Shown here in pieces: positions 24,191 through 55,855 of a stretch of DNA of 64,000 nucleotides; position 1 is the first letter of the stretch; every line of letters starts with the position of its first letter. Under the pieces are notes generated by a model, which ran no database searches, was not told where the DNA came from, and worked only from the letters and a program-made list of their open reading frames with translations. A program made the translations under genes and the position numbers. Source of the stretch: an uncultured Verrucomicrobiae bacterium (GTDB lineage: Bacteria; Verrucomicrobiota; Verrucomicrobiia; Chthoniobacterales; Chthoniobacteraceae); NCBI GenBank assembly GCA_963769025.1, contig CAVYKI010000012.1, positions 512,001 through 576,000 of the forward strand, written 5' to 3'.

Positions 24191-24477
24191 TGCGGCCTCC
24201 TTTCGAATGCACGACACATGGGTGCCGGGCGGGTTTGAACAATGCAGCACTGCGGCAGGTTTACGCCGGTGCCGCGTGATGGATAACGGAATGACCGTGG
24301 TCCCTTGCATTTTCATATAACGCGCGATCCAGAGTTGTTTCACGGGGCACCCATTTGCGGCATTCCGGGGCGTTGTGATGAAACGCACGGACACCCTAGA
24401 ACCCGCATGTTTCCTAGAAAGCGGTTGCACGTTGTGAGCAATGGGCGGCATGTCTTCGTTACCGAATGATACCGAAT

Positions 24478-25806
24478 ATGAAGACCAAACCCAAGGCCGC
24501 CGTCGCCACTGTCCGCGTGGGCAATATCACGCTCAATCTCTACGAGACTGGTTACGCCGCCCACAACGGCAAACGCTACCAACAGTTTTCCGCAGCCTAT
24601 TCCGAGGGCGGGAAGCGTCGTCACATCAGCGCCAGCAAATTGACAGCTGCGATGGACAAGGCGCGTACGGTCGCCCAACGGCTCCACAGCGGCAGACGTG
24701 AGGTCTCACGGCTCACGACCGCAGACGAGGAAAGCTACATCGTCGCACGGCGAGAACTGGAGGGAATCGGAATCCCGTTGCTGGACGCGGTGAAGCAATT
24801 CACCGCAGCAGCGCGGGCGCTTCCCGCTGGCGCATCCCTATTCGCAGCCGCGAGGGACTACGCACGGAGGCACCCGGAGAATACGCCGAGCAGGACGGTA
24901 ACCGAAGTGATCGCCGAATTGCTCACCGCACGAAAGCAAGACAAGGCCCGCCCGAGGTATCGGAAGGATTTGCACAGCACACTGGCGGCGAACCAACCGG
25001 GCAGCACCGACAGGCGCAGGAACAGTTTTGGAAACGCATTCGGCACCACCCGCATCAGCACCGTGATGACCGCCGAGATGGACGCATGGCTGCGCGGTCG
25101 CGGAGTGGCATCACGAACCCGCATCAAACTTGTCACCGTCCTTCGCACGCTGTTCAACTTTGCCAAAGCAGCGGGCTATCTTCCCAAAGGCGTTGCAACC
25201 GAGGCCGATGGACTCACGACACCCAAGGTGCAAGGCGCGGAGATCATCGCCATCTTCACCCCGGAGGAAATGCAGAAGCTTTTGACCGGCAGCAAGGCGC
25301 ACACCGCCACCGACGAGCACAGGCTATGGCTCGCACTCGGAGGCTTTGCGGGACTCCGCACGGCTGAACTGCTACGGCTTGAGTGGGGAAAGCATGTGCA
25401 GATCGAGCGCGGCCTGATTCAAGTTTCCGGTGACATCGCGAAGACGAACGGCAGGCGCATCATCACCATGCAACCAAACTTGATGGCATGGCTGGCACGT
25501 TTTGCAGGATGCACCGGCAAGGTGTTCACGCATCGAGCCGATGAACGATGTCACCAATACGCAAAACGGATGGGAGTGGAATGGAAGGCGAACGGCTTGC
25601 GCCATTCCTTCATCAGCTACCAGTGCGCGACCGTGAAAAACCTGCCAGCCGTAGCGATGGAGGCCGGAAACAGCGTCGCGGTGATCAACAAGCATTACCG
25701 TGAATTGACGACTGAGGCCGAGGGCAAGGCTTGGTTTGACATCGTGCCGCACGTGCACTTGGTCGCGAAAGGCTCTAGGCGAATTCGATTCCCGCGAAAC
25801 AAATGA
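24478..25806 (+). CDS. int: Tyrosine recombinase / phage-type integrase
   Basis: AGLRTAE (R), AKT (K), LRHSF, AGNS, KHY catalytic pattern; N-terminal arm-binding-like region. Confidence 0.9.
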   Translation: MKTKPKAAVATVRVGNITLNLYETGYAAHNGKRYQQFSAAYSEGGKRRHISASKLTAAMDKARTVAQRLHSGRREVSRLTTADEESYIVARRELEGIGIPLLDAVKQFTAAARALPAGASLFAAARDYARRHPENTPSRTVTEVIAELLTARKQDKARPRYRKDLHSTLAANQPGSTDRRRNSFGNAFGTTRISTVMTAEMDAWLRGRGVASRTRIKLVTVLRTLFNFAKAAGYLPKGVATEADGLTTPKVQGAEIIAIFTPEEMQKLLTGSKAHTATDEHRLWLALGGFAGLRTAELLRLEWGKHVQIERGLIQVSGDIAKTNGRRIITMQPNLMAWLARFAGCTGKVFTHRADERCHQYAKRMGVEWKANGLRHSFISYQCATVKNLPAVAMEAGNSVAVINKHYRELTTEAEGKAWFDIVPHVHLVAKGSRRIRFPRNK

Positions 25807-26023
25807 CAGTAGGAAAATGATGACGGCAGCTAAAGGGGATTCAAAAACCATATGGGCGATGCACTGCAAGAGCGTGAGATGGCGCTACGCTTCGAGAACG
25901 GGATTGCGTGAGCCGAGTGCAGGGGGGGGTGGTGCAAGCATCGGTTTGTTGCGTGAGCGCAAACGCCTGCGTCCGCGAAGCGGGGCCGTCAATTTGTGCC
26001 GGGCGCCATTGCGGCATCGCCGG

Positions 26024-27217
26024 TCAGAACCTCCGCGAGATGCTCGCCGCGATGAAGAAATCCGCGAATGCCGCATCACCCGTGTGACTCACTCCCGTGA
26101 ACCCGGAGATGCGTTTGTCCTCATTGCTCTGGATGCGGTTCCGGTAGAGCGCGACGGGCGCGGTCAGCGAGACAGTCCATCCGTTTTTCATCCACGTGAT
26201 GCCGGGCTCGATGGAAATGGCGTAGCCGGGCCGCCGGAAGCCGTTACTCTCACCGAGTGCGTCTGTCGCGGGCACGCCATCAATGCGCGGGCCGAGGCTG
26301 ATCGAGAGACCCCAAGACTGCACGGGTGTCCAAGCCACGCCGAGGCGCGCGTTGTATTGATCCGCGATGGAAGTGACCGACACGATGCCCGCCGGCCCTC
26401 CCGTTACCGCCACCCCGTTTGTGTCCTTTGGATTGAACAGGTAAAATCCCTGCAGGTATCCCTGCCACTGCGGCGAGAGTTCGCGGAACGCCAGAACCTC
26501 CGCTGCAAAACCGAACCCGCCGTCGCCTGGCTGGATGGACGGATCCACCGCGCGGACTTGCGGGCCGGTCACCGTATAAAAGGTGTCCTTCGCATTGTAA
26601 TCGCCCGTGGGAAACTTCGGCCCGAGTCCGAGCGAGATGTTTCCTTTCGTATTCTTTTGAGGGTCCAGAAGCCAGTAATACGCTGTGAGCCGCATGTCCC
26701 CGAGCCCGCTGGCCGACGTCTCGTGGCGCGTGCGATTGTCATGCTCGTAGGTCGTGGAGCGGGTCGAGTAGGAAAAGGGCAGCGTGAGTCCGATGCTGAG
26801 GCGTGGGGTCGCGGTGTACAGCACGGAGAGGTCGATGAATTGCTGGTCGTTGATGGGCTGCGCATCGAGCTGCGATGGAAGTGTGAATTCGCTGTCCTCC
26901 ACGAAAAGGCGCTCGGAATGAATCCACCGGTAGTTCACCGACACCAGCCAGTCGCCAGCCTTTGGATAACCGCCTTCGTTGCCCGTCAGAAAACTCCCTC
27001 CCAAGGAACATTGCCCGCCTCCACGCACAGCGATGCAGCCTTGGCCGAACGTGGCTGGCGTGCAAGCGAGCATGCCTCCGAGAACAAGGAGGAGTGCGGA
27101 CCATCCGGGCATCCTGGGGACCGAGGAGTGGTTATTCATCCGTCGCGAGCGGTGTGGCAAGGCCGCCCGTGACGCCCGCGAAGGAAGCGCCGGTGATAGG
27201 GTCTTCGTGATTTTCAT
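26024..27217 (-). CDS. Outer-membrane beta-barrel (MetA-pathway/'transporter'-like) with N-terminal Cys pair; true start may be ~27138
   Basis: Signal peptide, QGCIAVRGGGQC, SGLGDM..PTGDY, QPGDGG, alternating beta strands, C-terminal F. Confidence 0.7.
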   Translation of the reverse strand: MKITKTLSPALPSRASRAALPHRSRRMNNHSSVPRMPGWSALLLVLGGMLACTPATFGQGCIAVRGGGQCSLGGSFLTGNEGGYPKAGDWLVSVNYRWIHSERLFVEDSEFTLPSQLDAQPINDQQFIDLSVLYTATPRLSIGLTLPFSYSTRSTTYEHDNRTRHETSASGLGDMRLTAYYWLLDPQKNTKGNISLGLGPKFPTGDYNAKDTFYTVTGPQVRAVDPSIQPGDGGFGFAAEVLAFRELSPQWQGYLQGFYLFNPKDTNGVAVTGGPAGIVSVTSIADQYNARLGVAWTPVQSWGLSISLGPRIDGVPATDALGESNGFRRPGYAISIEPGITWMKNGWTVSLTAPVALYRNRIQSNEDKRISGFTGVSHTGDAAFADFFIAASISRRF

Positions 27218-27285
27218 TTTGTGTGCTCTGATGTTGTTGGTCTTCGTTGTGTGGAACGACGCGAGTTGCGGCGCTCGGGCTATCA

Positions 27286-27311
27286 GAGCAGGCAATGAGG
27301 GCAATTATTCC
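27286..27311 (-). promoter_or_regulatory. ECF promoter motif
   Basis: GGAATAA-N15-GCTC. Confidence 0.75.
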
Positions 27312-27390
27312 ACGGCAATGCTCAGCGCCCCGTGGTGGGTGCGCTTACGACGTCACGCAGTGGTCGGATAGCGGTGAGATCTAAGGCTGG

Positions 27391-28167
27391 TTATTTCTCC
27401 GTTTGAGCTGCTTGGTTTCTTCCGGGCTGCAGCCCGGAAGCTGTGAGCTGGTTTCGGACGAGACAGGCTGTGGCTCGCAAGAGCGACGGGCAGTAATGTT
27501 CTACCCGGAGCAAAGAGGGCAGGTCGTCCACGTCCTCCATCCGCGCGAAAGTATGAACGCTCATGCCGTGCGAGCGGATGTTGCGCTGCGTCTGTTCGAA
27601 GACCGCCGGTGTGCTCCACGCGATGTCGTCGAAGACAAACGCGTGTGAGCCGCTAAGGCCGATGAGCACGTAACCGCCATCGGTTGCTGGGATGAGGACG
27701 AAACTGAAGGAGTGCAACGCGGCAGCCGCATCGCGAAGGCGTTCGGTCGTGAGTTGTGGGCAGTCGCCGCCTGCAAAGAGAATCTCCCTCGCGCCGCGAG
27801 TGATTGTGTCCGCCAAAGTCGCGCGTAGGCGTGCGCCGAGGTCGCCTTCGGCTTGGGGATGAAACGTCGTTTGATCCGGCAGCAGCGGACCTAGCCAGTC
27901 GTGCATTTCCGCTCCAGACTCGGCTGGTGTGAAGTGAACCTCCACGCGCCAATCGCAAGGGACTTCCGCTGCTTGATGCTCGACGAGGCGGCGATAGACC
28001 TGCACAGCGGCGTCGTTGCCGATGCTCGCGGCGAGGCGGGTTTTCACTGCGCCGGGACGAGGCGCTTTCAGCATCAGGCAGAGTGTCGGGGGCATGTGCA
28101 GGAGTTCTGGTTTCAAGGCGAGATCAAGCAGGTTGCGCATCATCAAGTCGATTGGCGGGGCGTTCAT
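27391..28167 (-). CDS. TIGR04282/DUF2064-type glycosyltransferase (rSAM/arsenosugar-associated)
   Basis: KAPRPGAVKTRL, QAEGDLGARL, GGDCP, PATDGGYVLIG, WST, DVDD. Confidence 0.88.
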   Translation of the reverse strand: MNAPPIDLMMRNLLDLALKPELLHMPPTLCLMLKAPRPGAVKTRLAASIGNDAAVQVYRRLVEHQAAEVPCDWRVEVHFTPAESGAEMHDWLGPLLPDQTTFHPQAEGDLGARLRATLADTITRGAREILFAGGDCPQLTTERLRDAAAALHSFSFVLIPATDGGYVLIGLSGSHAFVFDDIAWSTPAVFEQTQRNIRSHGMSVHTFARMEDVDDLPSLLRVEHYCPSLLRATACLVRNQLTASGLQPGRNQAAQTEK

Positions 28168-29477
28168 GTGCCGGGTTCAGGGATGGCTATGGTGCGCGTG
28201 GCGCATAATTCGGATCGCCCACGAGGGTGACGGTAGAGGCGCCTCGAGAGGAAGCCCGCGACGAAGGGCAGCCAGATGAGCGCGCGCTCCCACCAGGACA
28301 GCGTCCAGACTTCGCCGATGCTGATGCGGTGGCACATGATGAAGTAAAGCGTGCCGGTAATGTTCAGCGCGATGGTGCCGCGATTGCGCGTGAGCGCGGC
28401 GAAAGGCAGCAGCCAGGTGAAATACCAAGCGTGCATCATGGGCGAGAGCAGGAAAGCGGAGAACAGAAACCACTCGGCGGCATTGGCGAAGCGGCGGCAG
28501 CGGAAGATCGCGACGACCCACGCGGCGAGCAGCGGGGGAACGAAGAGGGTGTTGATCCACTCCTTGCCGGTCACCGCATCGAGCACCGCGGGGATAAGTT
28601 CCGCGCTCCGGGCGTAACGTGCGAATTCCATCGGTGCGAGGCTTGTCGTCCACTCGCCGCTCCACGAGCAGACCATGGCCCAAGAGAGCGCGAAGGGCAG
28701 TGCGCCCGCAGCCATGAGGAGCGAGGAGCGCCGGAAGCCTGCGGTTGTCGATGTCTGCCACGCCATCCACGCGACGAGCGGCAGGGCCAGCCACTTGAAG
28801 GACACGGCGGTGCCTGCGAGCGCGACGGCGAGGAATGCGCGGCGTGGATTTGCCTCCCAAACGAGCCATGAGCCGACCAGCGCGAGGACGAACAGGCTGT
28901 CGTAATGGCCGCCGCCGGCGAAGCAGTAGAGCACGAGCGGATTCCACGCATACACCAGCGCGCGCCTGGTGCCGAAGCGTCGCGCAAGCAGTCCGCAAAC
29001 GGCGAGGTCAGCAATGGCGAAGACCGCTTTCATGCCCGTGACACCCGCGCCGATCCGCGTGAGGACGGCGAAGGTCATTTCCGACAGCGGCGGATAAATC
29101 GCCGTGCAATGCGGATGGCCGATCTTCACCCAAGTCGCATCGTGCAGCAGGCTCAGTTCGGGCGCGCTTGGCGGATACACGTAAGGATTGATGCCGCCGC
29201 TGAGCGCGTGCCCTTCCCACAGATAGCGGAAAATGTCGTCGCCCGGCTCCATCGCGAGCAGCGCAAGCCGCAGGCCCGCCCCGACGATCCAAAACATCGC
29301 GACAGAAAATTTGCCAACGCGCAGCGCAGCGAGATAGCCGAGGCTCATCGTGGCCAAGCCGGTGAGAAACGGCGGCACTTCTCCGAAGTGGAGCAAATCG
29401 CCATGCGGCAGAATCCACGCCGCTCCCGTGAGCAGCAGCGCGAGCGCCGCGACTTGCCAGACCCGCACCGCGTTCAT
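28164..29477 (-). CDS. GT-C membrane glycosyltransferase (GT87/DUF2029-like)
   Basis: DDIFRYLWEG..GINPY, IYPP, YAWNPLV, GHYD, HAWY. Confidence 0.8.
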   Translation of the reverse strand: MNAVRVWQVAALALLLTGAAWILPHGDLLHFGEVPPFLTGLATMSLGYLAALRVGKFSVAMFWIVGAGLRLALLAMEPGDDIFRYLWEGHALSGGINPYVYPPSAPELSLLHDATWVKIGHPHCTAIYPPLSEMTFAVLTRIGAGVTGMKAVFAIADLAVCGLLARRFGTRRALVYAWNPLVLYCFAGGGHYDSLFVLALVGSWLVWEANPRRAFLAVALAGTAVSFKWLALPLVAWMAWQTSTTAGFRRSSLLMAAGALPFALSWAMVCSWSGEWTTSLAPMEFARYARSAELIPAVLDAVTGKEWINTLFVPPLLAAWVVAIFRCRRFANAAEWFLFSAFLLSPMMHAWYFTWLLPFAALTRNRGTIALNITGTLYFIMCHRISIGEVWTLSWWERALIWLPFVAGFLSRRLYRHPRGRSELCATRTIAIPEPGT

Positions 29478-30233
29478 GCGCCGCGCTGTCCTCCGTGCCA
29501 GAGCCGGCGCAGCCAAAGCCGCACGATGGTCGAGAGGATCACGCTGCCCGCGCGCAGCGTGCCCATGATGGCGCCGGAGATTTTCGAGCGGTCCGCCCTG
29601 CCGCCGCCGGTAGCGCACGGGCACTTCGACGATGCGCAGTTTTTCCTCCACGGCGCGCACCTGCATTTCGACGGTCCAGCCAAAGCCACGGTCGCGCATG
29701 GCGATGCGGTCGAGCGCGTCGCGGCGGATGAGGCGGAGCGGACCGAGGTCGGGGTAGCGGTGGCCCCAGCCGAGTTCGATGAGCGCGACGGCGAGCGCGT
29801 TGCCGAAATTTTGTTGCGGAGTCATCGCGGCACGATTCGCCGGCAGACCGCGGCGGTTGCCGAGCACGAGTTCCGCACCGAGCGCCCCGGGCAAAAAGCC
29901 ACTGCAATTCGCCCAAGTCATCGCTCCCATCCGCGTCGCAAAAGAGCACCCATTCCACATCGTCGTCGAAGTCGATCATCCCGCGCCAGCAGGCGGCGCC
30001 GTAGCCGCGCCGCGGTTCGCTCAACACATCCGCGCCGTGCTGCACGGCGACTTGCGCGGTGCGGTCGCGGCTGCCGTTGTCCACCACGCGGATGCGCTCC
30101 AGGCCCAGATGCCGCAAGTCCGTGAGCACGCGCGGCAGTGCGGCTTCCTCATTGAGCGCGGGGATGATGCGCACGTCCGGGCGACGATTTGATCGGCGCG
30201 GGCTTCGGGTTTGGAATGGACGACGGACAGCAT
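29474..30233 (-). CDS. GT2 glycosyltransferase (polyprenol-phosphate hexosyltransferase-like), frameshifted
   Basis: IIPALNEE, VVDNGSRDRT, GYGAAC, FCDADGSD, DLGP, GWTVEMQ, SKISG. Confidence 0.8.
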
Positions 30234-30241
30234 GACGATGC

Positions 30242-30267
30242 GAGCGGAAGTGCAGCTTGATTATTCC
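30242..30267 (-). promoter_or_regulatory. ECF promoter motif
   Basis: GGAATAA-N15-GCTC, 8 bp from the GT2 ATG. Confidence 0.75.
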
Positions 30268-30286
30268 ATCGCCGGACAAGGGGCGC

Positions 30287-30368
30287 GGAATAAAGCAGCT
30301 GCACCCGGCGTCGTGAGTCCGAGTCCGTTGTGGGAAATGCGGAGAATAAAACGGCGTCCGTGCCGCTC
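30287..30368 (+). promoter_or_regulatory. Two tandem ECF promoter variants
   Basis: GGAATAA-N15-CGTC (30287) and AGAATAA-N15-GCTC (30343). Confidence 0.6.
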
Positions 30369-30377
30369 TGATGCTGC

Positions 30378-31129
30378 ATGAACCTCGATTCGATCTTCCG
30401 CCGATGCACTGCACTGGCTTTCGCTCTGCTCCTCACTTCGTGCGCCAACGCGGCCGATCTTCCCGTGGCCGGGAACGCTGTATCGAAGGAATACGCGGGG
30501 TTGCTCAAGACTTACGTCACAGCGGGTGGGGTGCGCTATGCGGCGTGGAAGCAGAACGCTGCGGACCTGGCCGCGCTTAAAAGCGTGGCGGATTTTTATG
30601 CCGGCACGCTGCCGCCGAAGGATCGCGACGCCTCGCTGGCCTGGCACCTCAACGCCTACAATTCGTGGATTCTGCACAACATCCTCGCGAAGTATCCGAC
30701 CAAGGGGCCGCTCGTCGGGGAGCCGCTTTTTTTCACGGCAACCGGATCACCATCTCCGGGCGCAAGATGAGCTTCAACGACTTGGAGCAAAAGGTCATCC
30801 GCCCGACGTTCAAGGAACCGCGCGTGCATTTCGCGCTGAACTGCGCGAGCGCGAGCTGCCCGCCGCTCGCCTCGCGACCGTTCGATGCAGCGACGCTGAA
30901 CGACCAGCTCGACCAGCTCACACGCGCTTTCATGAACGTAAATCCGCGGGCCATTATAGGCAGTGGCGGAAGCATCGCGCTCTCGAAAATCTTCGACTGG
31001 TATAAGGACGACTTCGCCGCAGCGGGTGGCTCGGTGGCGTTCATCAACCGCTATCGCAAGGAACCGCTCCCGGCGGGTGCGAAGGTGAAGTTCATGGACT
31101 ACGACTGGTCGCTGAACGAAACGAAGTGA
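30378..31129 (+). CDS. DUF547 domain lipoprotein (frameshift in T7 run ~30730)
   Basis: LNAYN, LEQKVIR..EPRVHFALNCASASCPPL, SKIFDWY..DF, YDWSLN. Confidence 0.85.
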
Positions 31130-31146
31130 CGCCGGTTCGAGCAAAT

Positions 31147-31172
31147 GGAATAAATCGCCGCGCCAGCCGCTC
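31147..31172 (+). promoter_or_regulatory. ECF promoter motif (probable autoregulation)
   Basis: GGAATAA-N15-GCTC upstream of the sigma gene. Confidence 0.8.
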
Positions 31173-31186
31173 ACTTCGGCACGCAC

Positions 31187-31732
31187 ATGGATTTCGAAGC
31201 CATCGTCAGCCTCTATTACGAGGACCTTTACCGGTTTGCGTTCAGCCTCGCGCGCAACCGCGACGAGGCGTGCGACCTGACGCAGCAGACCTACGCCGTG
31301 TATGCGGAGAAGGGCGGACAGGTGCGCGAGCAGGCGAAGGTCAAGAGCTGGCTCTTCACCACGCTTTACCGCGAGTTCCTGCGGCTCCGCGAACGCGGAC
31401 GCCGCCTCGTGAGCATGGACGATGAGGAAACCAACGTGCCGGAGCAGATGGCCGCGTCGGACACCGAGCGGTCGGCGGAGCACGCCGGGCTGCTCGACAT
31501 CCTCGCAAGCCTCGACCAGGGGCACCGCGAAATTCTGACACTCTTTTACCTCCAGCAGCACGCTTACAAGGACATCGCCGGAATTCTCGAAGCGCCCATC
31601 GGCACGGTGATGTCGCGCCTTTCCCGAGCCAAGGAAGCGCTCCGCAAGAAACTCGACGCCGTCACCCAAGAAAAAGGAATAATTATCATCCCCATCGACT
31701 CGAATCAGAAACGCCCCGCGAAAAATGGATAA
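31187..31732 (+). CDS. ECF RNA polymerase sigma factor
   Basis: LYRFAFSL..EACDLTQ..KSWLF (region 2); YKDIA.IL..PIGTVMSRLSR (region 4). Confidence 0.92.
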   Translation: MDFEAIVSLYYEDLYRFAFSLARNRDEACDLTQQTYAVYAEKGGQVREQAKVKSWLFTTLYREFLRLRERGRRLVSMDDEETNVPEQMAASDTERSAEHAGLLDILASLDQGHREILTLFYLQQHAYKDIAGILEAPIGTVMSRLSRAKEALRKKLDAVTQEKGIIIIPIDSNQKRPAKNG

Positions 31733-32474
31733 CGACCGCGCCAAAATACTTCTCAGTGCCTACCGCTCCGACGGAGCGGATGCGAGCGACCCGGTTTTTG
31801 CCGAAGCGCTGGCGCAGGCGGAGCGCGACCCGGAGCTGACGCGCTGGTTTGCCGAGGAACGCGCGCTCGATGATCGGATGCACGCCGCGCTTCGTTCGGT
31901 CCGTCCGCCCGCGAATCTCAGGGACGCCCTGCTGCTCACGGCGAAGGTGAGCCGGATGCCTACGCCGCGCGCCTGGTGGACGCGCCCCGCGTGGCTCGCC
32001 ATCGCCGCGGCCATCGTGCTTTTCGCCGGGCTGGCCTTTGTTGCGCTGCGCCCGCATTCCACGCCTTTCACGATCGCCGGAGTGACTTCGGAAATCGGGC
32101 GTCTGCACCGCGCGGAGCGCATCTCGCTCGGCGCGATGACCAGCGACCCGGAGCAAATTCAGCGCTGGCTGAAAGAGCACGGTGGCCCGCACGATTTCAC
32201 CGCACCCACCGGGCTGACCAGCCAGATGCGCCTCGGCTGCCAGGTGCTCGACATCAACGGCAACAAAGTCTCGCTCGTTTGCTTCCAGATCGAAGGCGGG
32301 CAGTTGGTGCATCTGCTCGTCATGGATCGCCGCCGCCTCGCCGACCCGCCGGTCATCGGGAAACCGATCATGCTCCAGGAAGGTGAACTGGCCTTTGCCA
32401 CTTGGTCCGAGGGCGACCGCACCTACGTCCTGGCCAGCAAGATCGGAGCAGACGAGCTGCGCAAATTCCTGTGA
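31725..32474 (+). CDS. Membrane anti-sigma factor (DUF3379-like)
   Basis: Overlaps the sigma gene; helical N-terminus, one TM, periplasmic GC..SLVCF. Confidence 0.8.
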   Translation: MDNDRAKILLSAYRSDGADASDPVFAEALAQAERDPELTRWFAEERALDDRMHAALRSVRPPANLRDALLLTAKVSRMPTPRAWWTRPAWLAIAAAIVLFAGLAFVALRPHSTPFTIAGVTSEIGRLHRAERISLGAMTSDPEQIQRWLKEHGGPHDFTAPTGLTSQMRLGCQVLDINGNKVSLVCFQIEGGQLVHLLVMDRRRLADPPVIGKPIMLQEGELAFATWSEGDRTYVLASKIGADELRKFL

Positions 32475-32524
32475 CGCCCGGCTGGCGGGAGCGAAGGCGC
32501 GCATTTCACTCCAAGTAGCGGGAC

Positions 32525-32550
32525 GGAATAAACCCCCGCGCCGTTTGCTC
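32525..32550 (+). promoter_or_regulatory. ECF promoter motif
   Basis: GGAATAA-N15-GCTC, 9 bp from the ATG. Confidence 0.75.
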
Positions 32551-32559
32551 GGATGACCG

Positions 32560-34098: not shown

Positions 34099-34147
34099 GT
34101 TGTCCGATACTTTCTACTGCGAATATGACGACCAACACTGAAGCTCC

Positions 34148-34750: not shown

Positions 34751-34775
34751 GTCGCCGCGTCTGCTCGACCGGCCC

Positions 34776-35185
34776 ATGCTCGCCCGCGCACTCAAAGTCC
34801 CGCTCATCGTCGGCACGCTGTTGAATCTCATCAACAGCGGCGACGCGCTCCTCGCCGGGCACCTGCCGCCAAGCGCGTCGCCGAGCTCATCGACCAGGGC
34901 GAACTCACCGCCACTGCCAACGACAACCTCAGCCCGATCAACGCCGAGAACATCCTCGAAGGCCACCGCCGCCTCGAATCTGGCAGAAGCATCGGCAAGC
35001 TCACCATCTCAGGGTGGAAATGAGCCCGATCTCTGACAAACCAAACAACGACCACTATGACCGCACTAACACTAACCATCGTCGCCAACATCAAGGCCGA
35101 CTCGGACAAGATCGATTTTGTGAAAGCAGAACTGCTCAAGCTTATCGATGTCACCCCCGCCGAAAAGGGCTGCATCAATCGCTCC
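34776..35185 (+). pseudogene. Three fused fragments: NrtS-like N-terminus, Zn-alcohol-dehydrogenase-family C-terminus, ABM monooxygenase N-terminus
   Basis: ALKV..IVGTLLNLINSGD; SPINAENI..HRRLESGRSIGKL; LTIVANIKA...AEKGCIN. Confidence 0.55.
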
Positions 35186-35206
35186 GCGCGCCATCCCTAT
35201 TCCACC

Positions 35207-43857: not shown

Positions 43858-43867
43858 CTGCGAGCGC

Positions 43868-46498: not shown

Positions 46499-46604
46499 GA
46501 TCTTGGGGAGAAAGGTCGGTCCTTTACGTGCTCCACTTCCACGTAGAGCGCACGCAGTTTCGGCGCGTCAAGCGCCACGGCGCAGATATGGAACGAAGCG
46601 AGTT

Positions 46605-47999: not shown

Positions 48000-48123
48000 A
48001 GTGGTGAGTATTCTATTCTTTGTTCAGGTCCGCAACGTCTGTGGTTGCAAGCCCATGCCTCGCGGGAGGTAGCGAAAAGACCTGCCGGAAGTTGAATGGC
48101 ATGGTGAATCGGAGGCATTCTAG

Positions 48124-48269
48124 GGAACCGCTGATTTAATCAGCGGTTCGCATCTTCGCGTGATTTTCAGCTCTCCAAGATGGCGTAAGAAGGATTTTGA
48201 ATTCGGAGGAAGTTTTTGATGGTCGAAGCCGGGTTGAATTTTCTGGATGTCGATTAAATCAGCGGTTCC
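48124..48269. mobile_element. 146-bp IS5-family-like MITE / internally deleted IS
   Basis: Perfect 18-bp TIR GGAACCGCTGATTTAATC, flanked by CTAG/TTAG. Confidence 0.75.
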
Positions 48270-48615
48270 TTAGCGATTTTGCTTCGCAAGACTGGCCACT
48301 TCGGCGGCCTTGCGCGTGCGCGCGTCGGTGATCCATTCGAGGGCACGGGCAAGATTGGCCTCGGCCTGCTTGGTGTCCTTGGTGATGCCGTAGGCGTGGC
48401 CTCTCGCAAAATAGCCGTCGCCGCCTTCAATCTCATGTATTTCGTCGGCGCGCTGATTTGCCTCGCCGAGACCGGGCGAGCGGAGCCCGCATCGGGGCCG
48501 CCGCGAGGGAATGAGTCGTGAAGCGGCGCGCGCCCTGCGGCCTGAGTTTCATTAACGCGACCTGGAGCACGCGCTGCCGCAGCAGGGAGGAAAAGGAGGG
48601 AATGGCCGCGGAGAC

Positions 48616-48641
48616 GGAATAAACGTCAGCGCCGTTCGCTC
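48616..48641 (+). promoter_or_regulatory. ECF promoter motif
   Basis: GGAATAA-N15-GCTC, 13 bp from the ATG. Confidence 0.8.
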
Positions 48642-48654
48642 ATTTCTACACTGC

Positions 48655-49807
48655 ATGAAAACCGAAACTGCCGTCAAAGAACGTTACAGCGCCGCGGCCA
48701 AAGCGCCGGAAGCCGCGCTTTGCTGCCCGGTCGAATACGACACCCGCTATCTCAAAATCATCCCGCCCGAAGTCATCGAGAAGGACTACGGCTGCGGCGA
48801 TCCTTCGCGCTGGGTGCAGCCAGGCGAGACCGTGCTCGACCTCGGCTCGGGCACGGGAAAAATCTGTTTCATCGCCGCGCAGGTCGTCGGAGCGAAGGGC
48901 AGGGTCATCGGCGTGGATATGACGGACGACATGCTCGAAGTCGCGCGCCGCAACGCGCCCATCGTCGCCGAGCGCATCGGCTACGCGAACGTCGAGTTTC
49001 GCAAGGGCCGCATCCAGGACCTCGCGCTCGATCTGGAAATGCTCGATGCGGAATTGAAGAAGCGGCCCATCACGGATGCCGCGTCATTTCTCGCCGCCGA
49101 TGAACTCGCCGACGAACTGCGCGTGCAGCCGTCCGCTCGTCGCGAGCGAATCGCGTCGATGTCGTCGTCTCGAATTGCGTGCTCAATCTCGTCGAGCCGC
49201 GCGCGAAGCGGCAGCTCTTCGAGGAGATTTTCCGCGTGCTGAAAAAAGGCGGACGCGCCGTCATTTCCGACATCGTGGCCGACGAGGAAGTGCCCGACGC
49301 GATGCAGCAAGACCCGACGCTCTGGAGCGGCTGCATCTCCGGCGCGCTGACGGAGGAAGGCTTTCTTGCAAGCGTTCGCCGACGCGGGCTTTTACGGCAT
49401 CGAGCTGCTCAAGCGCGACACGCAGCCGTGGCAGACCGTCGAGGGCATCGAGTTCCGCTCCGTCACGGTGCAGGCGTTCAAGGGCAAACAAGGCGCGTGT
49501 TTCGAGCGCAACCAGGCGGTGATTTACCTCGGCCCGTTCCGCGAAGTGCTCGACGACGACGGCCATCGCATGGAACGCGGCGTCCGCTACGCCGTCTGCG
49601 ACAAGACCTACCAGCTCTACCGCAAGGCGCCCTACGCGCGAGTTCTTCGAGTTCATCGAACCGCTCACCGAAGTGCCGCTGGAAAACGCCGCGCCCTTCG
49701 CCTGCGAGCGCACGACGCCGCCGCCACCCGCGCGAAACCAAGGGCCTCGAATACCGACGCCACCACCGCCGCCTCGCAGTGCTGCGATGGCGGGAAGCTG
49801 CTGCTAA
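48655..49807 (+). CDS. arsM: ArsM-like SAM methyltransferase, frameshifted
   Basis: LCCP, YGCGDP, LDLGSGTG, GVDMT, SNCVLNL, WSGCISGA, AVCDKT, Cys-rich C-terminus (CC..CC). Confidence 0.72.
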
Positions 49808-49827
49808 TATCACGCCTCACTTTCACC

Positions 49828-50284
49828 ATGCAAAACCAAGACAAACTGCAACTGCTCGCCCTCGATCTCACCAAAGCCTTTCCGCGCAGCCCGCGGGAGA
49901 CGCTCGCCGGCTACGTCATCGCCGGACGCACGCTCGACAAATGCCGCGCCGTCGTCGCCGGCACGAACGGCGAGTATCACTACGACTGCCCGCTGGACCG
50001 CCAGTTCCTCGGCTTCACCGGCATCGAGGCCGGCGCGTTCAAGGAATTCGTCGCGACCGGCGCCACCGATGCGGAGGTCGCCGACTGGATCACCGCGCAC
50101 TCGAAGGTGAAGGACCGCGCGGAAATCGTGCAATGGAACAACAAGCTGCGCGCACATGCGCCCGTGCGACATGTCGCTGGAGTTGCAGCTTTTCCTCGAA
50201 GACTACATCCCGCAGTTCATCCGCAAGAACCGCCCGGTGTATGTCTGGTTCGATGTCTATGACATCGAGGAACAGCGCATCTGA
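49828..50284 (+). CDS. DUF5069 domain protein (frameshift ~50150)
   Basis: DLT..PRSPRETLAGY...RTLDKCRA..GEYHYDCPLD..FL.F.GI. Confidence 0.75.
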
Positions 50285-50301
50285 TCGGCCAGATTCTTCC
50301 C

Positions 50302-51421
50302 ATGCTCGTCACCCTGCTCTTCATCGCCGTCTGTTTCCTCGCGTTCGCAAACGGCGCGAACGACAACTTCAAAGGCGTCGCGAGCCTGTATGGCAGCGGG
50401 ACGTGCGGCTATCGGAAGGCGCTCGCCTGGGCCACGGTGACGACGCTCGCGGGCAGCGTGGCTGCGCTCTTTCTCGCGCAGGCGTTGCTGGCGAAATTCA
50501 GCGGCAAAGGGCTGGTGTCCGCGAGCCTCGTGGCGTCGCCGCATTTCCTCCTCGCCGTCGCGCTCGGCGCGGGCGGCACGGTGCTGCTGGCCGCGCGGTT
50601 CGGCTTTCCGATTTCGACCACGCACGGACTTACCGGAGCGCTCGTCGGCGCCGGACTCGCCGCGGGCGGGGCGGTGAACTTCGGGCAGTTGGGCAGCGCC
50701 TTCGTCCTGCCGCTCGTGCTCAGTCCGCTGCTCGCCGTCGTGCGTGGGCGCGGTGGTGTATCTCGGCTTTCGATTCGCGCGGCTGCGGCTCGGCGTCACG
50801 AAGGAAATGTGCGTCTGCGCGGGCGTGGAAGAGCAGGTCATCGCGCTCCCGCAGCCCGGCGGGATTTTCGCCGCGCAAATGCTGCCGACGCTCTCGATCG
50901 CCGTGGACAATCCCGCAGCCTGCGCCCAGCGCTACGCGGGCCGCGTGCTCGGCGTGAACGCGCGCAGCTTGCTCGACTCGCTGCATTTTCTCAGCGCCGG
51001 TGCGGTCAGCTTTGCGCGCGGGCTGAATGACACGCCGAAGATTGCCGCGCTGCTGCTCGTCGCCGCCGCGCTCGATTTGCGCTGGGGCCTGCTCGCCGTC
51101 GCGGTGGCGATGGCGCTCGGCGGCATCCTCGGGGCACGCCGCGTCGCGGAAACGATGAGCCACAAGCTCACGGAGATGAACCCCGGCCAGGGCTTCGCCG
51201 CGAATCTTTCCACCGCGCTGCTCGTCACCACCGCGAGCTTCCACGGCCTGCCGGTGAGCACCACGCACGTCAGCGTCGGCGCGCTGCTCGGCATGGGCGC
51301 CGTCACCGGGCAGGCGCACTGGCGTCCCGTGCTCGGCGTGCTCGCCTCGTGGGTCGTCACGCTGCCGTGCGCTGCGCTCCTCGCGGCGCTCGCGGGCTGG
51401 CTGGTGCGCTCGATTTCCTGA
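50302..51421 (+). CDS. PiT-family inorganic phosphate transporter (frameshift ~50742)
   Basis: NGANDNF, PISTTH, ARGLNDTPK, PVSTTH. Confidence 0.85.
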
Positions 51422-51425
51422 ACCT

Positions 51426-52411
51426 ATGAATCGCTTCGACGAAAAACTCTCCGCCCACGGCCTGAGCGCTCATGCGCTCGCGCTTGCAGACGCTGCAGAT
51501 CAACGTGGGCCGCAAATGCAACCAGACCTGCCGCCACTGCCACGTGGATGCCGGGCCGTGGCGCACGGAGATGATGGATGAGCCGACCGCGCATCGCATC
51601 GGCGCATGGATTCGCGAGCATCGCCCGCCCGATCGTGGACATCACCGGCGGCGCACCGGAGCTGAGCGAGTTCTTTCGTTACTTCGTCGAGACGGCGCGC
51701 GCGTGCGGCGCGCATGTCATCGACCGCAACAACCTCACGATCATCGAAGAGCGCGAACTTCGCGCTGGCTGCCGGAGTATCTCGCGGAGCACGAGGTCGA
51801 GGTCGATCGCTTCGCTGCCCTGCTACTCCGCGGAGAATGTGAACGCAGCAGCGCGGCGACGGCGTGTTCGACAAAAGCATCTCCGCGCTCTGAAGAAGCT
51901 GAACGCCGTCGGCTACGGCACGCGACTGCCGCTGAACCTCGTTTACAATCCGCTCGGCGCGACGCTGCCCGGCCCGCAGGCGGAACTGGAGGCCGATTAC
52001 AAGGAAGCGCTGCAGCGCGATTTCGGCATCGTCTTCAACCGACTTTTCACGATCACGAACCAGCCCATCGCCCGCTTCGCCGAAGATCTGCGCGCGCAAG
52101 GCAAGTGGGACGAATACCTCGAACTGCTCGTCGAACGCCTTCAATCCCGCGACCGTCGAAGGACTGATGTGCCGCTCCACGCTGAGCGTCGGCTAGCGCG
52201 GCGAAGCTCTTCGACTGCGACTTCAACCAGATGCTCGGGATGCAATTGCGCAATGGCACGCCGCTGTTCCTGTGGGATGTGACGCCGGAATACCTCGACG
52301 GCCGGCACCATCGGCACCGGCGATCCATTGCCTCGCCTGCACCGCGGCTGCGGGAGCAGTTGCACCGGGGAGACGATCGACGCCATGCAGGCGGTCGCTG
52401 CTGCGGGATGA
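51426..52411 (+). CDS. arsS: ArsS arsenosugar-type radical SAM protein (DUF3641), multiply frameshifted
   Basis: LQINVGRKCNQTCRHCHVDAGP, DITGGAPE, ASLPCY, LNLVYNP, MCR, DCDFNQML, HCLACTA..SSC. Confidence 0.85.
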
Positions 52412-52427
52412 GTGTCTCGCGCGATGT

Positions 52428-53312
52428 TCACGGGGGGCGGGCATCTATGAACGCCGAGACGGACACAGCCAGCCCAACTCCATCCAAGTGGCGAACCAAT
52501 CGCGGACTTTCGCGGCGGCTTCCTCGTCGCCGGTGTGCGATTTGGCGAAGGCGGACGCGCACGCGCCTTCGAGCGAGGCTCCGGCATTGAGCGCGGTGAG
52601 CAGCGGAACGCTTCGGGGTCGAGGCGCTTGTAATAAGACGGAGAGATTGACGCGATGGACGGCGAGGTGGATCGGCGTGCGGCTCGGGCGCGCGGCGATG
52701 CGCGGGCCGGCGGCGCGTGACGTGGCGGCGACGGCGTTGCTGAACGTGCCGGTTTCGATCGTGGCTGTCCTTGAGCTTGCGCAGCAGTTCGTCGACCGGA
52801 TGCGCGAGTTCGAGCAGCGTGAGGTAGGGCTGGAGGCCGAGGCGCAGCTGGTCCGCGGGGTTTGCGGCGAGCCTCGCCGGGTCGAGCGGCGGCCGCTCCG
52901 GCTCGTCGAAGGCGATGACGCGCGCCCATTCGACGCGCGCCATGTCGAGGGCGAGGGCGCGTGCGGCGCGGTGAGTTCGGGATGCGCGTTCGGAGGAAAG
53001 CCGGCAGAGCTGGCCCGAGGTCGCGCAGCGTCCACGACGTCGATCCGCACGCTCTCGAGATACGCGACCGCGAGCCGGTCGAACTTCCGCTCGCCGAGCA
53101 CGGCGCGCAGCCCGCGGAAGTCCTCGCCGAAACGAGCCGAGCAGCCGCCACCAGTACTGCTGGTTGTAGATCTGGAGCCGCTCGAAGGACGTGAGCCGGT
53201 CGTTCGGCTTGATGAACCGCGCCGCCACGTCCGCGGCGGGCGAGCCGTCTTTCCAGCGTCGGCTGCATGCCGTCGTCCGGCAGCGAGCGGGCGCATCACG
53301 GCGGCGGGCCAT
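52428..53312 (-). CDS. DUF2063 (BufC/HvfC-like) RiPP partner protein, frameshifted
   Basis: [35 protein letters not shown]; directly downstream of DUF692. Confidence 0.75.
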
Positions 53313-54207
53313 CAGCCGCTGGACTTCCGGCCGAGGCGATCGCGCGCGTTACGCGGCGAGCGTCGCTGGCATCGGGCAGAAATCGGTTGGCCTTGAGCGC
53401 CTCGCGATGCACTTCGTCGAAGCTCGGGAATGCGGTCGTCCCATTCGAGCAGCGTGGCGGTGCGGCCGCAGCGCTGCGATGGCGTGCGCGTAGAGCTTCC
53501 ACACGGGATCGAGCACCGGATGATCGTGCGTATCGAGGATGTAGCGCTCGAACTTCGTGTGGCCGGCGATGTGGATCTGCGCGACGCGCTCGCGCGGGCA
53601 CGGCGTCGAGGTAGTCGTACGGATCGAAGCCGTGGTTCTTCGAGGAGACGTAGATGTTGTTCACGTCGAGCAGGATTCCGCAGTCGGCGCGCTCGACGAC
53701 TTCGCTGAGGAATTCCCACTCGGTCATCTCGCGAGACGTGGAACTCCGCGTAGCTGCTCACGTTCTCCACCGCGACGGGGACTCCGAGAAAGTCCTGCAC
53801 CTCGCGGATGTTGCGCGCGGTGCGCTTCGACCGCCTCCCACGTGTAGGGCATCGGCAGCAGGTCGTGCGTGTAGCGGCCGTCGACGCTGCCCCAGCAGAG
53901 GTGGTCGGAGAGCCACGGCGTCTTCGTGCGCTTGGTCGAGCGCCTTGAGCTTGCTGCAGATGGTCGCGGTTCGGCCGCGCGGCGTTGCCGAAGTACATCG
54001 AGACGCCGTGCTGCACGACGCGGTACTGCTCGAGGATCTGGTCGAGCACGTGCGAGCGGGCGGCCCGCCATCGACCATGTAGTTTTCCGAGATGATCTCG
54101 AACCAATCGACGACCGGCTTCTTCTCGAGGATGTGCTGGTAGTGCGGGATGCGCAGGCCGATGCCGATGCCGTAGTCGGTGAAGCCGTTGAAGCGGGTGG
54201 CGGGCAT
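53312..54207 (-). CDS. DUF692 multinuclear non-heme iron oxidase (MNIO; BufB/MbnB-like), frameshifted
   Basis: [69 protein letters not shown]. Confidence 0.9.
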
Positions 54208-54313
54208 GGGGAAAATGCGATGGCGACTGCGATTGGGCGCACGGCGATCACCGATCGTGACTCGCGAGCGGGCTCCGGCGCGATGCGGAGCCAGAGCCTC
54301 GATCGGGGTCTGG

Positions 54314-54625
54314 TTACTTACAGCGTCGTGTGCGACCGGCTTGCCGTCCTTCACGGCGCAGCCGCCCTTGCCTTTGCAGGAGTTCTTGCCGGCGCAGCCG
54401 TTGTCGCCGCGTCTTGCAGCCGCCCTTGCCCTTGCAGGAGTTCTTGCCTTTGCAGTCGTGGGTTTCGCCTTTCTTTTCGTCGGCGAGGACGCCGGCCTGC
54501 TGGCTGTCGGCATTCTTCTTGAACGCCGTGCCGTTATTCGAGGCGGCATTGGCTTTGGCGGTAAAGCCGCCCATGAGGATGCCCGCGAGCGCAGCGCCAG
54601 CGAGCAGAGTCTTCGTGTTTTTCAT
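54314..54625 (-). CDS. Signal-peptide-bearing Cys-rich RiPP precursor (bufferin BufA2-like), 1-nt frameshift ~54410
   Basis: Sec signal then [13 protein letters not shown] and [13 protein letters not shown] repeats; immediately upstream of DUF692. Confidence 0.82.
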
Positions 54626-54686
54626 TTGGTGTTGTGTACTTTGGTTTTGGTTTTAAACGACGCGGAATGCGGCGTTCGGGCGATCA

Positions 54687-54712
54687 GAGCAGACAGCCTC
54701 GGGAATTATTCC
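54687..54712 (-). promoter_or_regulatory. ECF promoter motif
   Basis: GGAATAA-N15-GCTC upstream of the precursor. Confidence 0.8.
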
Positions 54713-55110
54713 ATGCCGCCACCGCAGGAATTGAATCGCGGGCTGCCAGTTCATATCGGCGTTTGAAAACCTTATTCAAATCCACCGTCATCGCCGCGTC
54801 CGTCGCGGTCCGATGACTGGCACGAATCGAGCGCGCGGCGTGCGTGAGTCAGAGTGTTCGAGAGCGTGCATTAAGAGTGAGTAAGGAATCTTTTTCGAGC
54901 GAGCGCTCGTCACCTGGGTTGGGCGACCCTCACTCCAATTCCATGAGGGGCTGTTTTTTCAACCTTACACCTTTTTCGTCCCTCACGCGGCCTGATACGC
55001 GCCAAAAACGCGGCTACAACGTGTTTTACAGTAGTTGATTACATCGGATTCAGGCTTGTGAAAACGCGCCAAAATCCGGGCTCCAAAATGTGTAAGGTTG
55101 GGCCGTCACT

Positions 55111-55473
55111 TTACACCGACTTTACACCTGCCGTGCGGATGAAGGCGACGATGCGCTCGATCATCGGCGCGGTGATCTGAAGCTCCGTGAGGCGGAGGAC
55201 GCGCCAACCGTCCAGCGCCGCTTCCAGATACTTCTCGGCGTCCGCCGCAAAGCCCTGTGGGCGATTGTGGCGGCCCTGGATGTAGATCCCGCTCTCGACC
55301 TCGATGAGCGTGCGGCTTTCAACGTGAGCGAAGTCCGCACGCCACTTGCGCTCGGCGTGAAATCGAAACTCCCGATCCAGCGCCGGGCCGCCCAGCGACT
55401 GCCAGTAGAGCAGAAAGCTACGCTCTTGCCGTGAAGGCGGATTCTTGTCGCGGAAGCGGAGGCTCATCCGCAT
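55111..55473 (-). CDS. Phage-type Vsr/DUF559-like endonuclease
   Basis: EFRFHAERKWRADFA..LIEVE.G..GRH..DAEKY..GWRVLR. Confidence 0.75.
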   Translation of the reverse strand: MRMSLRFRDKNPPSRQERSFLLYWQSLGGPALDREFRFHAERKWRADFAHVESRTLIEVESGIYIQGRHNRPQGFAADAEKYLEAALDGWRVLRLTELQITAPMIERIVAFIRTAGVKSV

Positions 55474-55756
55474 CGTACGTTGTCAAGCGAGGCGCGAATG
55501 CCATCGGCGCTCGGCGGCAGCGCAGTAAAAATGAGGCATGTCCATCAACGAAAATCATGCGGCTCAACCCGCGACGACGACGTATGTTTTCGCGTTCTGA
55601 TACACGCGCCAACCGCACGTGCAACCGAGGAGCGGATGGCCGCGGCGGTTACCGAATCGTTACCGAATTTGAAAACGAGCACTGCCTCAAAAAGAGCGGG
55701 CGCGCTGGAAGCTAGGACACATGCGGCTTCCAAGGCGCTCAGGCGTCGAAAACCGT

Positions 55757-55855
55757 GCGTTGTGATGAAGCGCGCGGACGCGTCTTATCCGGTGCAGTTG
55801 CGGACGGCGACGGATGAATTCCGGGGCTGAATGAAGCACCGTTTCCTGACGTAAA
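55757..55855 (+). pseudogene. 3' half of the ligase-like target gene, containing attR
   Basis: VVMKRADASYPVQLRTATDEFRG*MKHRF, homologous to 12180..12290. Confidence 0.6.

Follow-up and report, generated by a model that had tools for sequence, protein, structure and literature searches.

How does a 31-kb stretch of DNA come to lie within what is left of a ligase-like gene, and which protein put it there? This question is raised by a locus of an uncultured Verrucomicrobiae bacterium (GenBank assembly GCA_963769025.1). The window analysed here is a 64,000-nucleotide stretch of contig CAVYKI010000012.1 (positions 512,001 to 576,000 of the forward strand); positions below are counted from its first letter. 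The genome holding the window is labelled G000 (window: G000:C12:512001-576000), and other G and L labels denote related genomes and contigs. Our analysis indicates that the segment 24375-55768 is very probably a genomic island, inserted by its own heterobivalent (lambda-type) tyrosine integrase (24478-25806) at an attachment site (attB) derived from a ligase-like gene.

Island boundaries and reconstructed attachment sites

The island comprises 31.39 kb and is bounded by an exact 13-bp repeat (GCGTTGTGATGAA), with the copy of the left attachment site (attL) at 24370-24382 and that of the right one (attR) at 55757-55769 (13 of 13 positions); when the two cores were compared further, up to ...CGGAC, 21 of 23 positions agreed. 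A third copy of the 13-mer was found on the minus strand at 12260-12272, in a remnant of the ligase-like gene. With at most one mismatch allowed, three copies occurred in the window against 0.07 expected, and none of 100 shuffles reached three. Joining the right end of the island to its left end gave the site of the circular form (attP), in which CCGTGCGTT (55753-55761), GTGATGA and AACGCACGG (24382-24390) form a perfect 9-bp inverted pair at 7-bp spacing. Around it lie a 24-nt inverted repeat (55712-55735 against 24394-24417, 20 of 24 matching), both copies of which were recovered by an 18-mer search, and paired arm repeats, with GTTACCGAAT at 55648 and 55659 at the right end and GTTACCGAAT / GATACCGAAT at 24458 and 24468 at the left end. 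The palindromic attP, the inverted repeat and the paired arm repeats had all been described in the original prediction, and the sequence does read as claimed there. Window-wide, the arm 10-mer was weakly enriched (7 seen against 2.6 expected, with 1 of 100 shuffles reaching 7); the arm repeats carry weight because their paired positions share offsets with five related elements.

Joining the two flanks gave the reconstructed attB, GGGGCGTT-GTGATGA-AGCGCGCGG. The frame across it reads FRGVVMKRADASYPVQLRTATDEFRG and that of the 12.2-kb remnant reads FEGVVMKRADSPYPLQLRSATEEFRG; comparison of these translations, together with a DNA identity of 81.6% over 98 bp (12175-12272 against 55854-55757), bore out the match between the two that had been proposed. 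A stop codon was present at attL, 14 codons upstream of the core.

It might be argued that the repeats are chance occurrences in an ordinary segment of chromosome. The GC content of the segment (0.57-0.675) is near the 0.64 of the genome, and the integrase was the sole mobility gene found. The count of the 13-mer speaks against such an explanation, however, and it is contradicted by the empty sites, the sister element with the same core, the conserved arm geometry and the joined form described below; we regard it as extremely improbable.

Empty sites in related genomes

Two loci in genomes of the same genus, G012:C59 and G002:C3, were found to share the left flank of the window at 81-87% identity over 1.3-1.7 kb. 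This flank contains module Q (Table 1), which is multicopy in relatives and adjoins an empty attB in two of them; where its copies are intact (G002 and G012), the exonuclease matched PDDEXK_1 at 1e-27, and a match to the phrog_69 exonuclease was obtained as well. At G012:C59 the module (84-87% identity) is followed by ..TTCGGGGCGTTGTGATGAAGCGCACGG, and the sequence passes GGGGCGTTGTGATGAAGCGC[A/G]CGG directly into a ligase 3' remnant that is 82.8% identical over 58 bp to the attR flank of the window (55757-55814). The same left flank at G002:C3 is followed by GCATTCCGGGGCGTTGTGATGAAGCGCGCGGA. By alignment, these two loci are empty attB sites, and the window is such a site with 31.39 kb added at the core, so that in two relatives the attB reconstructed in the original prediction exists as a real, unoccupied site. 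An integrative island is recognised by direct repeats at its ends and by an empty site in relatives; both are present here, and comparison with the empty sites shows, at the level of sequence, that the insertion was precise. Inversion by the integrase between the 12.2-kb remnant and attL was also considered as the source of the odd left flank; it was set aside, as G025, G002 and G012 share this flank without such a partner.

The integrase

Of the two possible starts of the integrase (Table 1), ATG 24478 agreed better with the starts of homologues than 24466, and residues are numbered from it. The protein matched Pfam PF00589 with 32.3 bits (cut-off 27.1; E 1e-7), as is required of the catalytic domain of tyrosine recombinases, and the phrog_1 integrase with 6.5e-20. 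Its AlphaFold2 (AF2) model had a predicted local distance difference test score (pLDDT) of 89.6. When the model was searched with Foldseek, Brujita Int (1.2e-8), Tn1549 Int (1.5e-8) and residues 75-356 of lambda Int (template modelling score 0.70, target-normalised) were obtained, and XerA also matched; a core-binding and catalytic fold is therefore predicted from the model and these matches. Among 31 aligned homologues R294, R375 and Y407 were invariant and K322 nearly so.

In the N-terminal domain of the model, strands at 10-14, 17-27, 33-43 and 46-52 were followed by a helix at 55-77, with a pLDDT of about 90. This modelled fold fits that of arm-binding integrases as described in PMC8138268. 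The Pfam arm-binding models gave no match to the N-terminal domain, and a profile of three integrases yielded no hit among PDB sequences at E 0.01. Overall, the evidence supported the claims that the element is integrative, that its tyrosine integrase is of the lambda (arm-binding) type and that the overlap measures 7 bp.

Sister elements at the same core

A related integrase with 71% identity was found in G025, in an 8.06-kb element with unrelated cargo and in a different genomic context. The ends of this element are an exact repeat (GGGCGTTGTGATGAAACGCACGG, 23 of 23 positions) and both of its flanks are ligase-derived: the left one (ALAFYLRLRRFRGVVMK) is the ligase frame minus about 10 codons, and the right one is a frameshifted ligase 3' end. 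On the metagenome contig L068 (9087 bp), the right arm of a G025-type element is joined to its left arm at the same core, with no foreign flank within the 8518 bp examined. The attP junction looked for in the original prediction was thereby met with in a sister element.

Further traces of the same family were obtained. G026:C366 holds a truncated copy of a close relative, with the core, the P' arm carrying GTTACCGAAT / GATACCGAAT, 26 integrase codons and a different left flank. In three public sequencing runs from two studies, contigs 85-95% like the window matched it from 24366 or 24368 to 25753 and were unlike it beyond both positions; their left continuations differed among themselves, one of them being the G026 flank. 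The contig L072 carries an attR-like site with a ligase remnant at 1734 and a hybrid junction at 3700, where a P arm carrying GTTACCGAAT repeats is followed by the core, by a P' arm whose repeats are of the GCTATG type, and by an integrase. We did not accept L072 as proof of the island's attP, since a type-A P arm joined to a type-C P' arm (arm types are given below) marks an accretion hybrid and not a circle junction. A scan of viral contigs for GTGATGAAACGCACGG returned 12 loci with no integrase or ligase match, which were treated as chance.

The ligase-like target and the element that carries it

A protein search with the 12.2-kb remnant returned 337 longer proteins; among the 120 matches listed, most were of 207 aa and 83-98% identical over the matched part, and some sources annotate these 207-aa proteins as ATP-dependent DNA ligase. 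The family carries the motifs PK[LFIV][ND][GD]WR near the N-terminus (often PK[LF]NGWR), EG[VIL]V[MA]K (often EGVVMK) and a C-terminal [WC..]xKHR[FW] (..KHRF), which we take to be ligase motifs I (with the KxDG lysine), IV (EGxxxK) and V. It matched the phrog_114 ATP-dependent DNA ligase at 2.2e-7, and its profile matched the ligase domain of M. tuberculosis LigD in the PDB (E 2.5e-4). Pfam PF01068 matched 9 of 10 members below the cut-off (best E 0.0039), and the Atlas neighbours of the protein were viral proteins of roughly 200 aa, many with PF01068. An AF2 model built from 10 sequences was too poor (pLDDT 49.6) and was left unused. Judging from these matches, we name the family ligase-like with moderate confidence; at 207 aa, the protein would hold at most a nucleotidyltransferase domain, with no room for an OB domain.

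The stretch occupied by the island is the V-M-K codons of motif IV, as the original prediction had it, and GTGATGA was invariant across all full-length ligase genes inspected. Of 101 related genomes, 20 contained the ligase-like gene, frequently more than once; 18 of the matches were full length, and fragments were numerous. Around full-length copies a conserved block was found: a PIF1-like helicase, a 1486-aa PrimPol-PolA fusion, small open reading frames (ORFs) including a phrog_503 member and a variable stretch are followed by the ligase, DUF6573, two AAA ATPases, a tyrosine integrase (about 33% identical to that of the island) and a PrimPol/D5-like protein. The distance from the ligase 3' end to the phrog_503 ORF ranged from about 1 to about 8 kb. 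Since the same block occurred in ten IMG/VR viral contigs as well as in the relatives, the gene does sit in a provirus-like block, in agreement with the earlier suggestion that it is carried by another mobile element. In G000, only the helicase-PolA half of such an element was located, beyond the right edge of the window and 19 kb from attR (C12:586925-595661); its counterpart was not found in this genome, and the assembly contained no full-length ligase gene but three fragments only.

Two of the ligase fragments in the window, at 12178-12515, lie head to head. A TGA codon was present in both ligase remnants of this genome (12199-12201 region and 55828-55830), at a position where 24 of 33 distinct family copies have Trp and the remaining copies without a stop have F, M, L or C; common ancestry of the two TGA-bearing remnants seems likelier than recoding. 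A direct repeat of about 70 bp was observed at 17811-17882 and 21551-21622 (98.6% identical, 3.74 kb apart). It also occurs in G025, L072, L065 and the viral contig L075, where it lies about 140 bp downstream of a ligase 3' end or remnant, and may mark a boundary or a site of recombination in the variable region of the ligase-carrying element.

The original prediction had gone on to state that the integrase targets a conserved catalytic motif. The target stretch and the mobile gene family were upheld in this claim; on the other hand, every site found was in a decayed fragment, none in a gene that works, and the best reading of the site is that it mimics a tRNA-Leu T-arm (see below), not that its motif was chosen for a catalytic role. 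The landing site might be described as a decayed ligase-derived pad (left half-site CGGGGCGTT) that travels with mobile debris such as module Q or earlier islands; intact ligase genes (left half-site GAGGGCGTG) would then be poor or unused targets, and the link to the catalytic motif would be historical only. The occupied sites (G000, G025, G026:C366 and L072) and the empty ones (G012:C59 and G002:C3) indeed all lie in fragments, G000 and G025 share a deletion of roughly 10 codons upstream of the core, and, compared with the attP half-site CCGTGCGTT, the left half-site of the fragments agrees in 7 of 9 bases and that of the consensus ligase in 5. Interrupted full-length ligases numbered 0 of 18 in relatives and 0 of 10 in viral contigs. 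Insertion itself, however, cuts off motif V and would turn a working gene into such a fragment, so that decay after insertion predicts the same picture. Moreover, the intact ligase gene G139:C113 already has GGGCGTTGTGATGAAGCGCGCGG, and in run X2 the loose ends carry ..TTCTTCGA ahead of the core, which is FFEGVVMK as in intact genes, with a consensus agreement of only 0.7. We give the travelling pad somewhat less than an even chance of being the right description.

tRNA-targeting relatives and the origin of the specificity

At 62% identity, the integrase of G012:C101 belongs to a 9.85-kb element in tRNA-Leu(GAG), the ends of which are a 22-bp repeat (GTACTCGGGGCGGGACTTGAA) identical to the 3' end of that tRNA. 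The contigs L069 and L070, from different samples, were 100% identical and circularly permuted, which points to a circle or a tandem array of about 6.95 kb; their junction, GGGGCGGG-ACTTGAA-AACGCACGC with TTACCGAAT repeats on both sides, is a tRNA-Leu-type attP. A tRNA-Leu-like core was also found in G105 (42%) and another T-arm-like core in G149 (48%), and a tRNA gene lay within 1.5 kb at 14 of 31 related integrase loci. When 1.5 kb on either side of 29 integrase homologues was searched for the ligase, no hit was obtained; most of these homologues are tRNA-linked. Insertion sites of homologues, which had been named as a check in the original prediction, thus agreed with it at the 71% relative, which uses the same core, and departed from it at 62% and below, where tRNA T-arms are used. 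A scan of a genome collection with the integrase alone returned five loci of 31-35% identity with no ligase or core nearby and was uninformative on specificity.

The two core types could be placed in register, with GGGGCGGG / ACTTGAA / CCCGCACGG for tRNA-Leu and GGGGCGTT / GTGATGA / A[A/G]CGC[A/G]CGG for the ligase. They have the same outer bases and the same 7-bp spacing, and differ in the overlap and in two adjoining bases per side. When the C-terminal 340 residues were used for a tree, the four integrases of the ligase type formed a clade (100/100), the sister of which was the pair of tRNA-Leu integrases; G149 and G105 branched outside. The root was set at the midpoint of a tree drawn with five more distant homologues. 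Because the tRNA-Leu core shares its outer bases with the ligase core, the integrase lineage looks to have been re-aimed from a tRNA T-arm to a look-alike ligase stretch, and the direction from tRNA to ligase is suggested by the midpoint rooting and by the frequency of tRNA linkage in the wider family.

Arm sites and the N-terminal domain

In G025, L068, G012 and L069, the two repeats of the P arm begin 115 and 104 bases ahead of the overlap start, and those of the P' arm 85 and then 95-107 bases after it. The corresponding offsets were 113 and 102 before and 84 and 94 after in G000, and 113, 102, 83 and 104 in L072, the arms of which come from different elements. Paired arm repeats thus stand at near-constant offsets in six elements, whatever the arm sequence. 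Three arm types were distinguished: type A (TTACCGAAT) in G000, L069 and the old arm of L072, type B (TTCATACA) in G025 and L068, and type C (GCTATGCA) in G012 and the P' arm of L072.

The N-terminal residues of the integrases (about 95) were found to track the arm type, with identities of 54% for G000-L069, 58% for L072-G012 and 99% for G025-L068 against 18-39% for other pairs. The C-terminal remainder tracked the core type instead: identities were 81-85% among ligase-type integrases, 81% for the tRNA-Leu group and 62-73% across the two groups. The N-terminal tree accordingly paired G000 with L069 (98/99), L072 with G012 (98/97) and L068 with G025 (96/91), in strongly supported conflict with the C-terminal tree. 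The arm repeats that characterise heterobivalent integrases appear in three types, each with apparently one type of N-terminal domain, and these comparisons of sequence show that N-terminal domain and arm sites change together across elements.

Cargo, excisionase-like gene and present mobility

The Pfam scan covered 132 ORFs of at least 110 aa between 20 and 60.3 kb of the window. No relaxase, coupling-protein or mating-pore family was detected among these ORFs, and no conjugation, replication or capsid gene was seen by the same scan in the island, which carries a varied cargo (Table 1). The orfX' next to the right end shares 55% identity with an ORF found in the provirus-like element that carries the ligase, and a second orfX' copy occurs at genome position C12:587235-587561. 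At 53299-54625, the gene of an MbnB/TglH/ChrH-family (DUF692) enzyme extends over four frames, and a 33-bp tandem duplicate lies at 54358-54448; this region may be an operon for a ribosomally synthesised and post-translationally modified peptide (RiPP) carried as cargo.

Directly downstream of the integrase, an 80-aa excisionase-like ORF was found in L068, G025, G012 and L070, with a score of 8e-5 for phrog_66 and scores below cut-off for TIGR01764 (0.002) and Pfam HTH_17 (0.008). The present mobility of the island is in doubt because this gene of four smaller relatives was not found. In the original prediction, both ends and the integrase had been called intact. This holds for the DNA sites and the integrase ORF; the missing excisionase-like gene does not go with it, and fine detail is uncertain in an assembly so rich in frameshifts.

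The island may therefore be a fixed relic, which entered by means of the integrase, lost or never had an excisionase-like partner, and is now inherited vertically. Such a fate would agree with the absence of any homologue of the 80-aa ORF from the genome and with the size of the island, which at 31 kb is three to four times that of the relatives seen in joined form (7-10 kb). On the other hand, the integrase has a full-length ORF, and the island retains its four arm sites and its two half-sites. An unrelated directionality factor would escape recognition, frameshift errors could mask a small gene, and L072, the closest relative by C-terminal sequence, also lacks a homologue of the 80-aa ORF. 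Fixation is a serious possibility, though we lean slightly away from it, and the chance that the island still excises is roughly even or lower.

Proposed insertion mechanism and points against it

In the insertion that we propose, the C-terminal domains of the integrase would bind the two inverted 9-bp half-sites flanking GTGATGA, and the N-terminal domain would bind two pairs of TTACCGAAT arm repeats, about 113/102 bp away on one side and about 84/94 bp on the other. Strand exchange would take place within the overlap, at cleavage positions that are putative in their exact placement, and would join the circular attP, CCGTGCGTT-GTGATGA-AACGCACGG, to the attB, GGGGCGTT-GTGATGA-AGCGCGCGG. The attB used here would have been a decayed 3' fragment of a ligase-like gene adjoining the exonuclease module. 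The ancestor integrases presumably targeted tRNA T-arms, and the ligase site may act as a mimic of them, because its outer half-site bases equal those of the T-arm of tRNA-Leu(GAG).

Several observations weigh against an insertion of this kind. The catalytic pentad of tyrosine recombinases is given as R-K-H-R-H plus a Tyr nucleophile in PMC8138268, and the His positions of the integrase, as placed by alignment, read Asn, namely N372 (in HxxR) and probably N398 (the last His). The right-side match of the empty sites to the window extends over only about 58 bp and ends with the remnant. Insertion into an intact ligase gene was not found, all 18 full-length matches in the 101 relatives and all 10 in the viral contigs being uninterrupted, and the P'-arm pattern occurred in only 2 of 151 genomes of the family. 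An excised or empty form of the island itself was not seen, and no public sequencing run contained the window (best sampled-word share 0.19). No excisionase-like homologue was found anywhere in this genome (best tblastn E 0.16). Finally, the assembly has many frameshift errors.

Assembly quality and other features of the window

The genome assembly comprises 5.34 Mb in 13 contigs with 64% GC, and is 83% complete despite the few contigs. Frameshifts break rpoB and rpoC, for example at C3:126485-129413: domain 6 of rpoB is split over four open frames, the longest open frame of rpoC has 666 aa, and the PolA homologue is in eight pieces; the assembly looks to be of the unpolished long-read type. 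Frameshifted genes of the island were therefore not taken as a sign of decay, as rpoB and rpoC are broken likewise, and the split alkyl sulfatase, PHO4, MbnB-like enzyme and methyltransferase are most likely assembly errors; split genes elsewhere in the window are likewise not to be taken for pseudogenes. Single-base detail in homopolymers at the att sites is uncertain; the copies in G025, G002 and G012 agree with it.

The coordinates of the features are collected in Table 1. Elsewhere in the window, a region of lower GC (9400-12020; 0.55-0.57) beside the 12.2-kb ligase remnant contains an MIT_C/phospholipase-D-like ORF and a BrxL-like ATPase fragment and may be a defence-island relic. ARAGORN called a 96-nt tRNA-Glu at 4927-5022, inside a 666-aa tetratricopeptide repeat (TPR) ORF; Rfam gave no tRNA there, and the call is probably false. 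The Rfam scan of the window returned no family at threshold. Prepilin-type (N_methyl) genes were present at 2773-4456 as tandem duplicates with 87-88% identity over 0.4-1.07 kb.

Table 1. Positions of the island, its attachment sites and the neighbouring ligase-derived sequences in the window.
Feature	Coordinates	Strand	Remarks
Second ligase remnant, residues about 130-207	12178..12411	-	Intact, unoccupied core 12260-12272; abuts inverted partial copy
Inverted partial ligase copy	12381-12515	+	Without core; missing exactly 17 codons around core
Left-flank module Q: PD-(D/E)XK exonuclease gene and 250-aa ORF	22449..24204	-	Frameshifted in this assembly
attB-left, last ligase-like frame trace (..FAAFRGV)	24336..24374	+	Core-adjacent; conserved in G002:C3, G012:C59 and G025
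attL core	24370..24392	+	Overlap GTGATGA 24375-24381; C' half-site AACGCACGG 24382-24390
P' arm	24394..24477	+	24-nt inverted-repeat copy 24394-24417; arm sites 24458-24467 and 24468-24477 (84 and 94 bases after overlap start)
Tyrosine integrase	24466..25806	+	ORF 446 aa; likelier start ATG 24478 (442 aa); N-terminal arm-binding, then core-binding and catalytic domains
Cargo	25807..55110		Pfam scan: glycosyltransferases, extracytoplasmic function (ECF) sigma/anti-sigma pair, peroxiredoxin, alkyl sulfatase, Na+/H+ exchanger, DUF547, lipase-like gene, DUF4838, methyltransferases, PHO4 transporter, MbnB/DUF692-like enzyme
orfX', 120 aa, phage family without assigned function	55111..55473	-	phrog_503 4e-27
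P arm	55648..55761	+	Arm sites 55648-55657 and 55659-55668 (113 and 102 bases before overlap start); inverted-repeat copy 55712-55735; C half-site CCGTGCGTT 55753-55761
Ligase 3' remnant, residues 176-207 of 207-aa family	55756..55854	+	TGA at 55828-55830 where family mostly Trp
attR core	55757..55779	+	Overlap GTGATGA 55762-55768; B' half-site AGCGCGCGG 55769-55777

Comparison with known systems and significance

The mechanism is a standard one. With the arm-binding tyrosine integrases described in PMC8138268, for which lambda Int is the model, the island shares the three-part protein, the inverted half-sites of the core with 7 bp of overlap between them, repeats of the arm type on either arm and, in relatives, an excisionase-like partner. 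It differs in the Asn at two usual His positions, in the lack of a Pfam arm-binding match and in its target, which is a coding stretch of a mobile element's gene. Compared with its own tRNA-inserted relatives (G012:C101 and the 6.95-kb L069/L070), it has the same attP layout, arm offsets and C' half-site (AACGCACG) at 62% integrase identity, whereas its overlap is GTGATGA and theirs ACTTGAA, the inner half-site bases differ and its target is not a tRNA.

In streptococcal integrative and mobilizable elements (IMEs), serine integrases are described as inserting into the conserved genes traG, maff2 and snf2 carried by ICEs (integrative conjugative elements), with tandem accretion at shared sites (PMC5357655). 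Common to both systems is that one mobile element aims at and disrupts a conserved gene of another. The streptococcal elements are found in Firmicutes, have serine integrases and target conjugation genes; here an arm-site tyrosine integrase acts in a Verrucomicrobiota-like genome on a replication-type ligase gene, and no mobilisation genes were seen. Full-text searching of the literature for an integrase that targets a ligase gene gave no relevant paper among those listed, and a search on the general topic gave general works only. What is new here is the target, that is, the ligase-like family of a PolA/PrimPol provirus-like element or its fragments, the link to an ancestral site in the tRNA-Leu T-arm, and the three-by-two combination of arms and cores.

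A bolder scenario, which we consider rather unlikely, is that re-aimed tRNA-Leu integrases have made these islands hyperparasites of the PolA/PrimPol provirus-like element, with arm domain and repeats swapped as one cassette. If it is true, the islands would inactivate the ligase of the resident provirus-like element, be carried in its cargo region and leave behind pieces of the ligase gene on which a further island could land, and the arm-binding domain and arm repeats would be exchanged as a cassette among elements that meet at the same pad.

The elements described here make up a compact natural series on target change by tyrosine integrases, with one attP geometry, two core types and three types of arm domain and arm site; if the swaps behave as the sequences suggest, core and arm specificity would be separable and recombinable. 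They also represent a case, in Verrucomicrobiota-like genomes, of a mobile element that inserts in a targeted way into a gene family belonging to another, for which the streptococcal serine integrases (PMC5357655) are the only precedent in the literature consulted.

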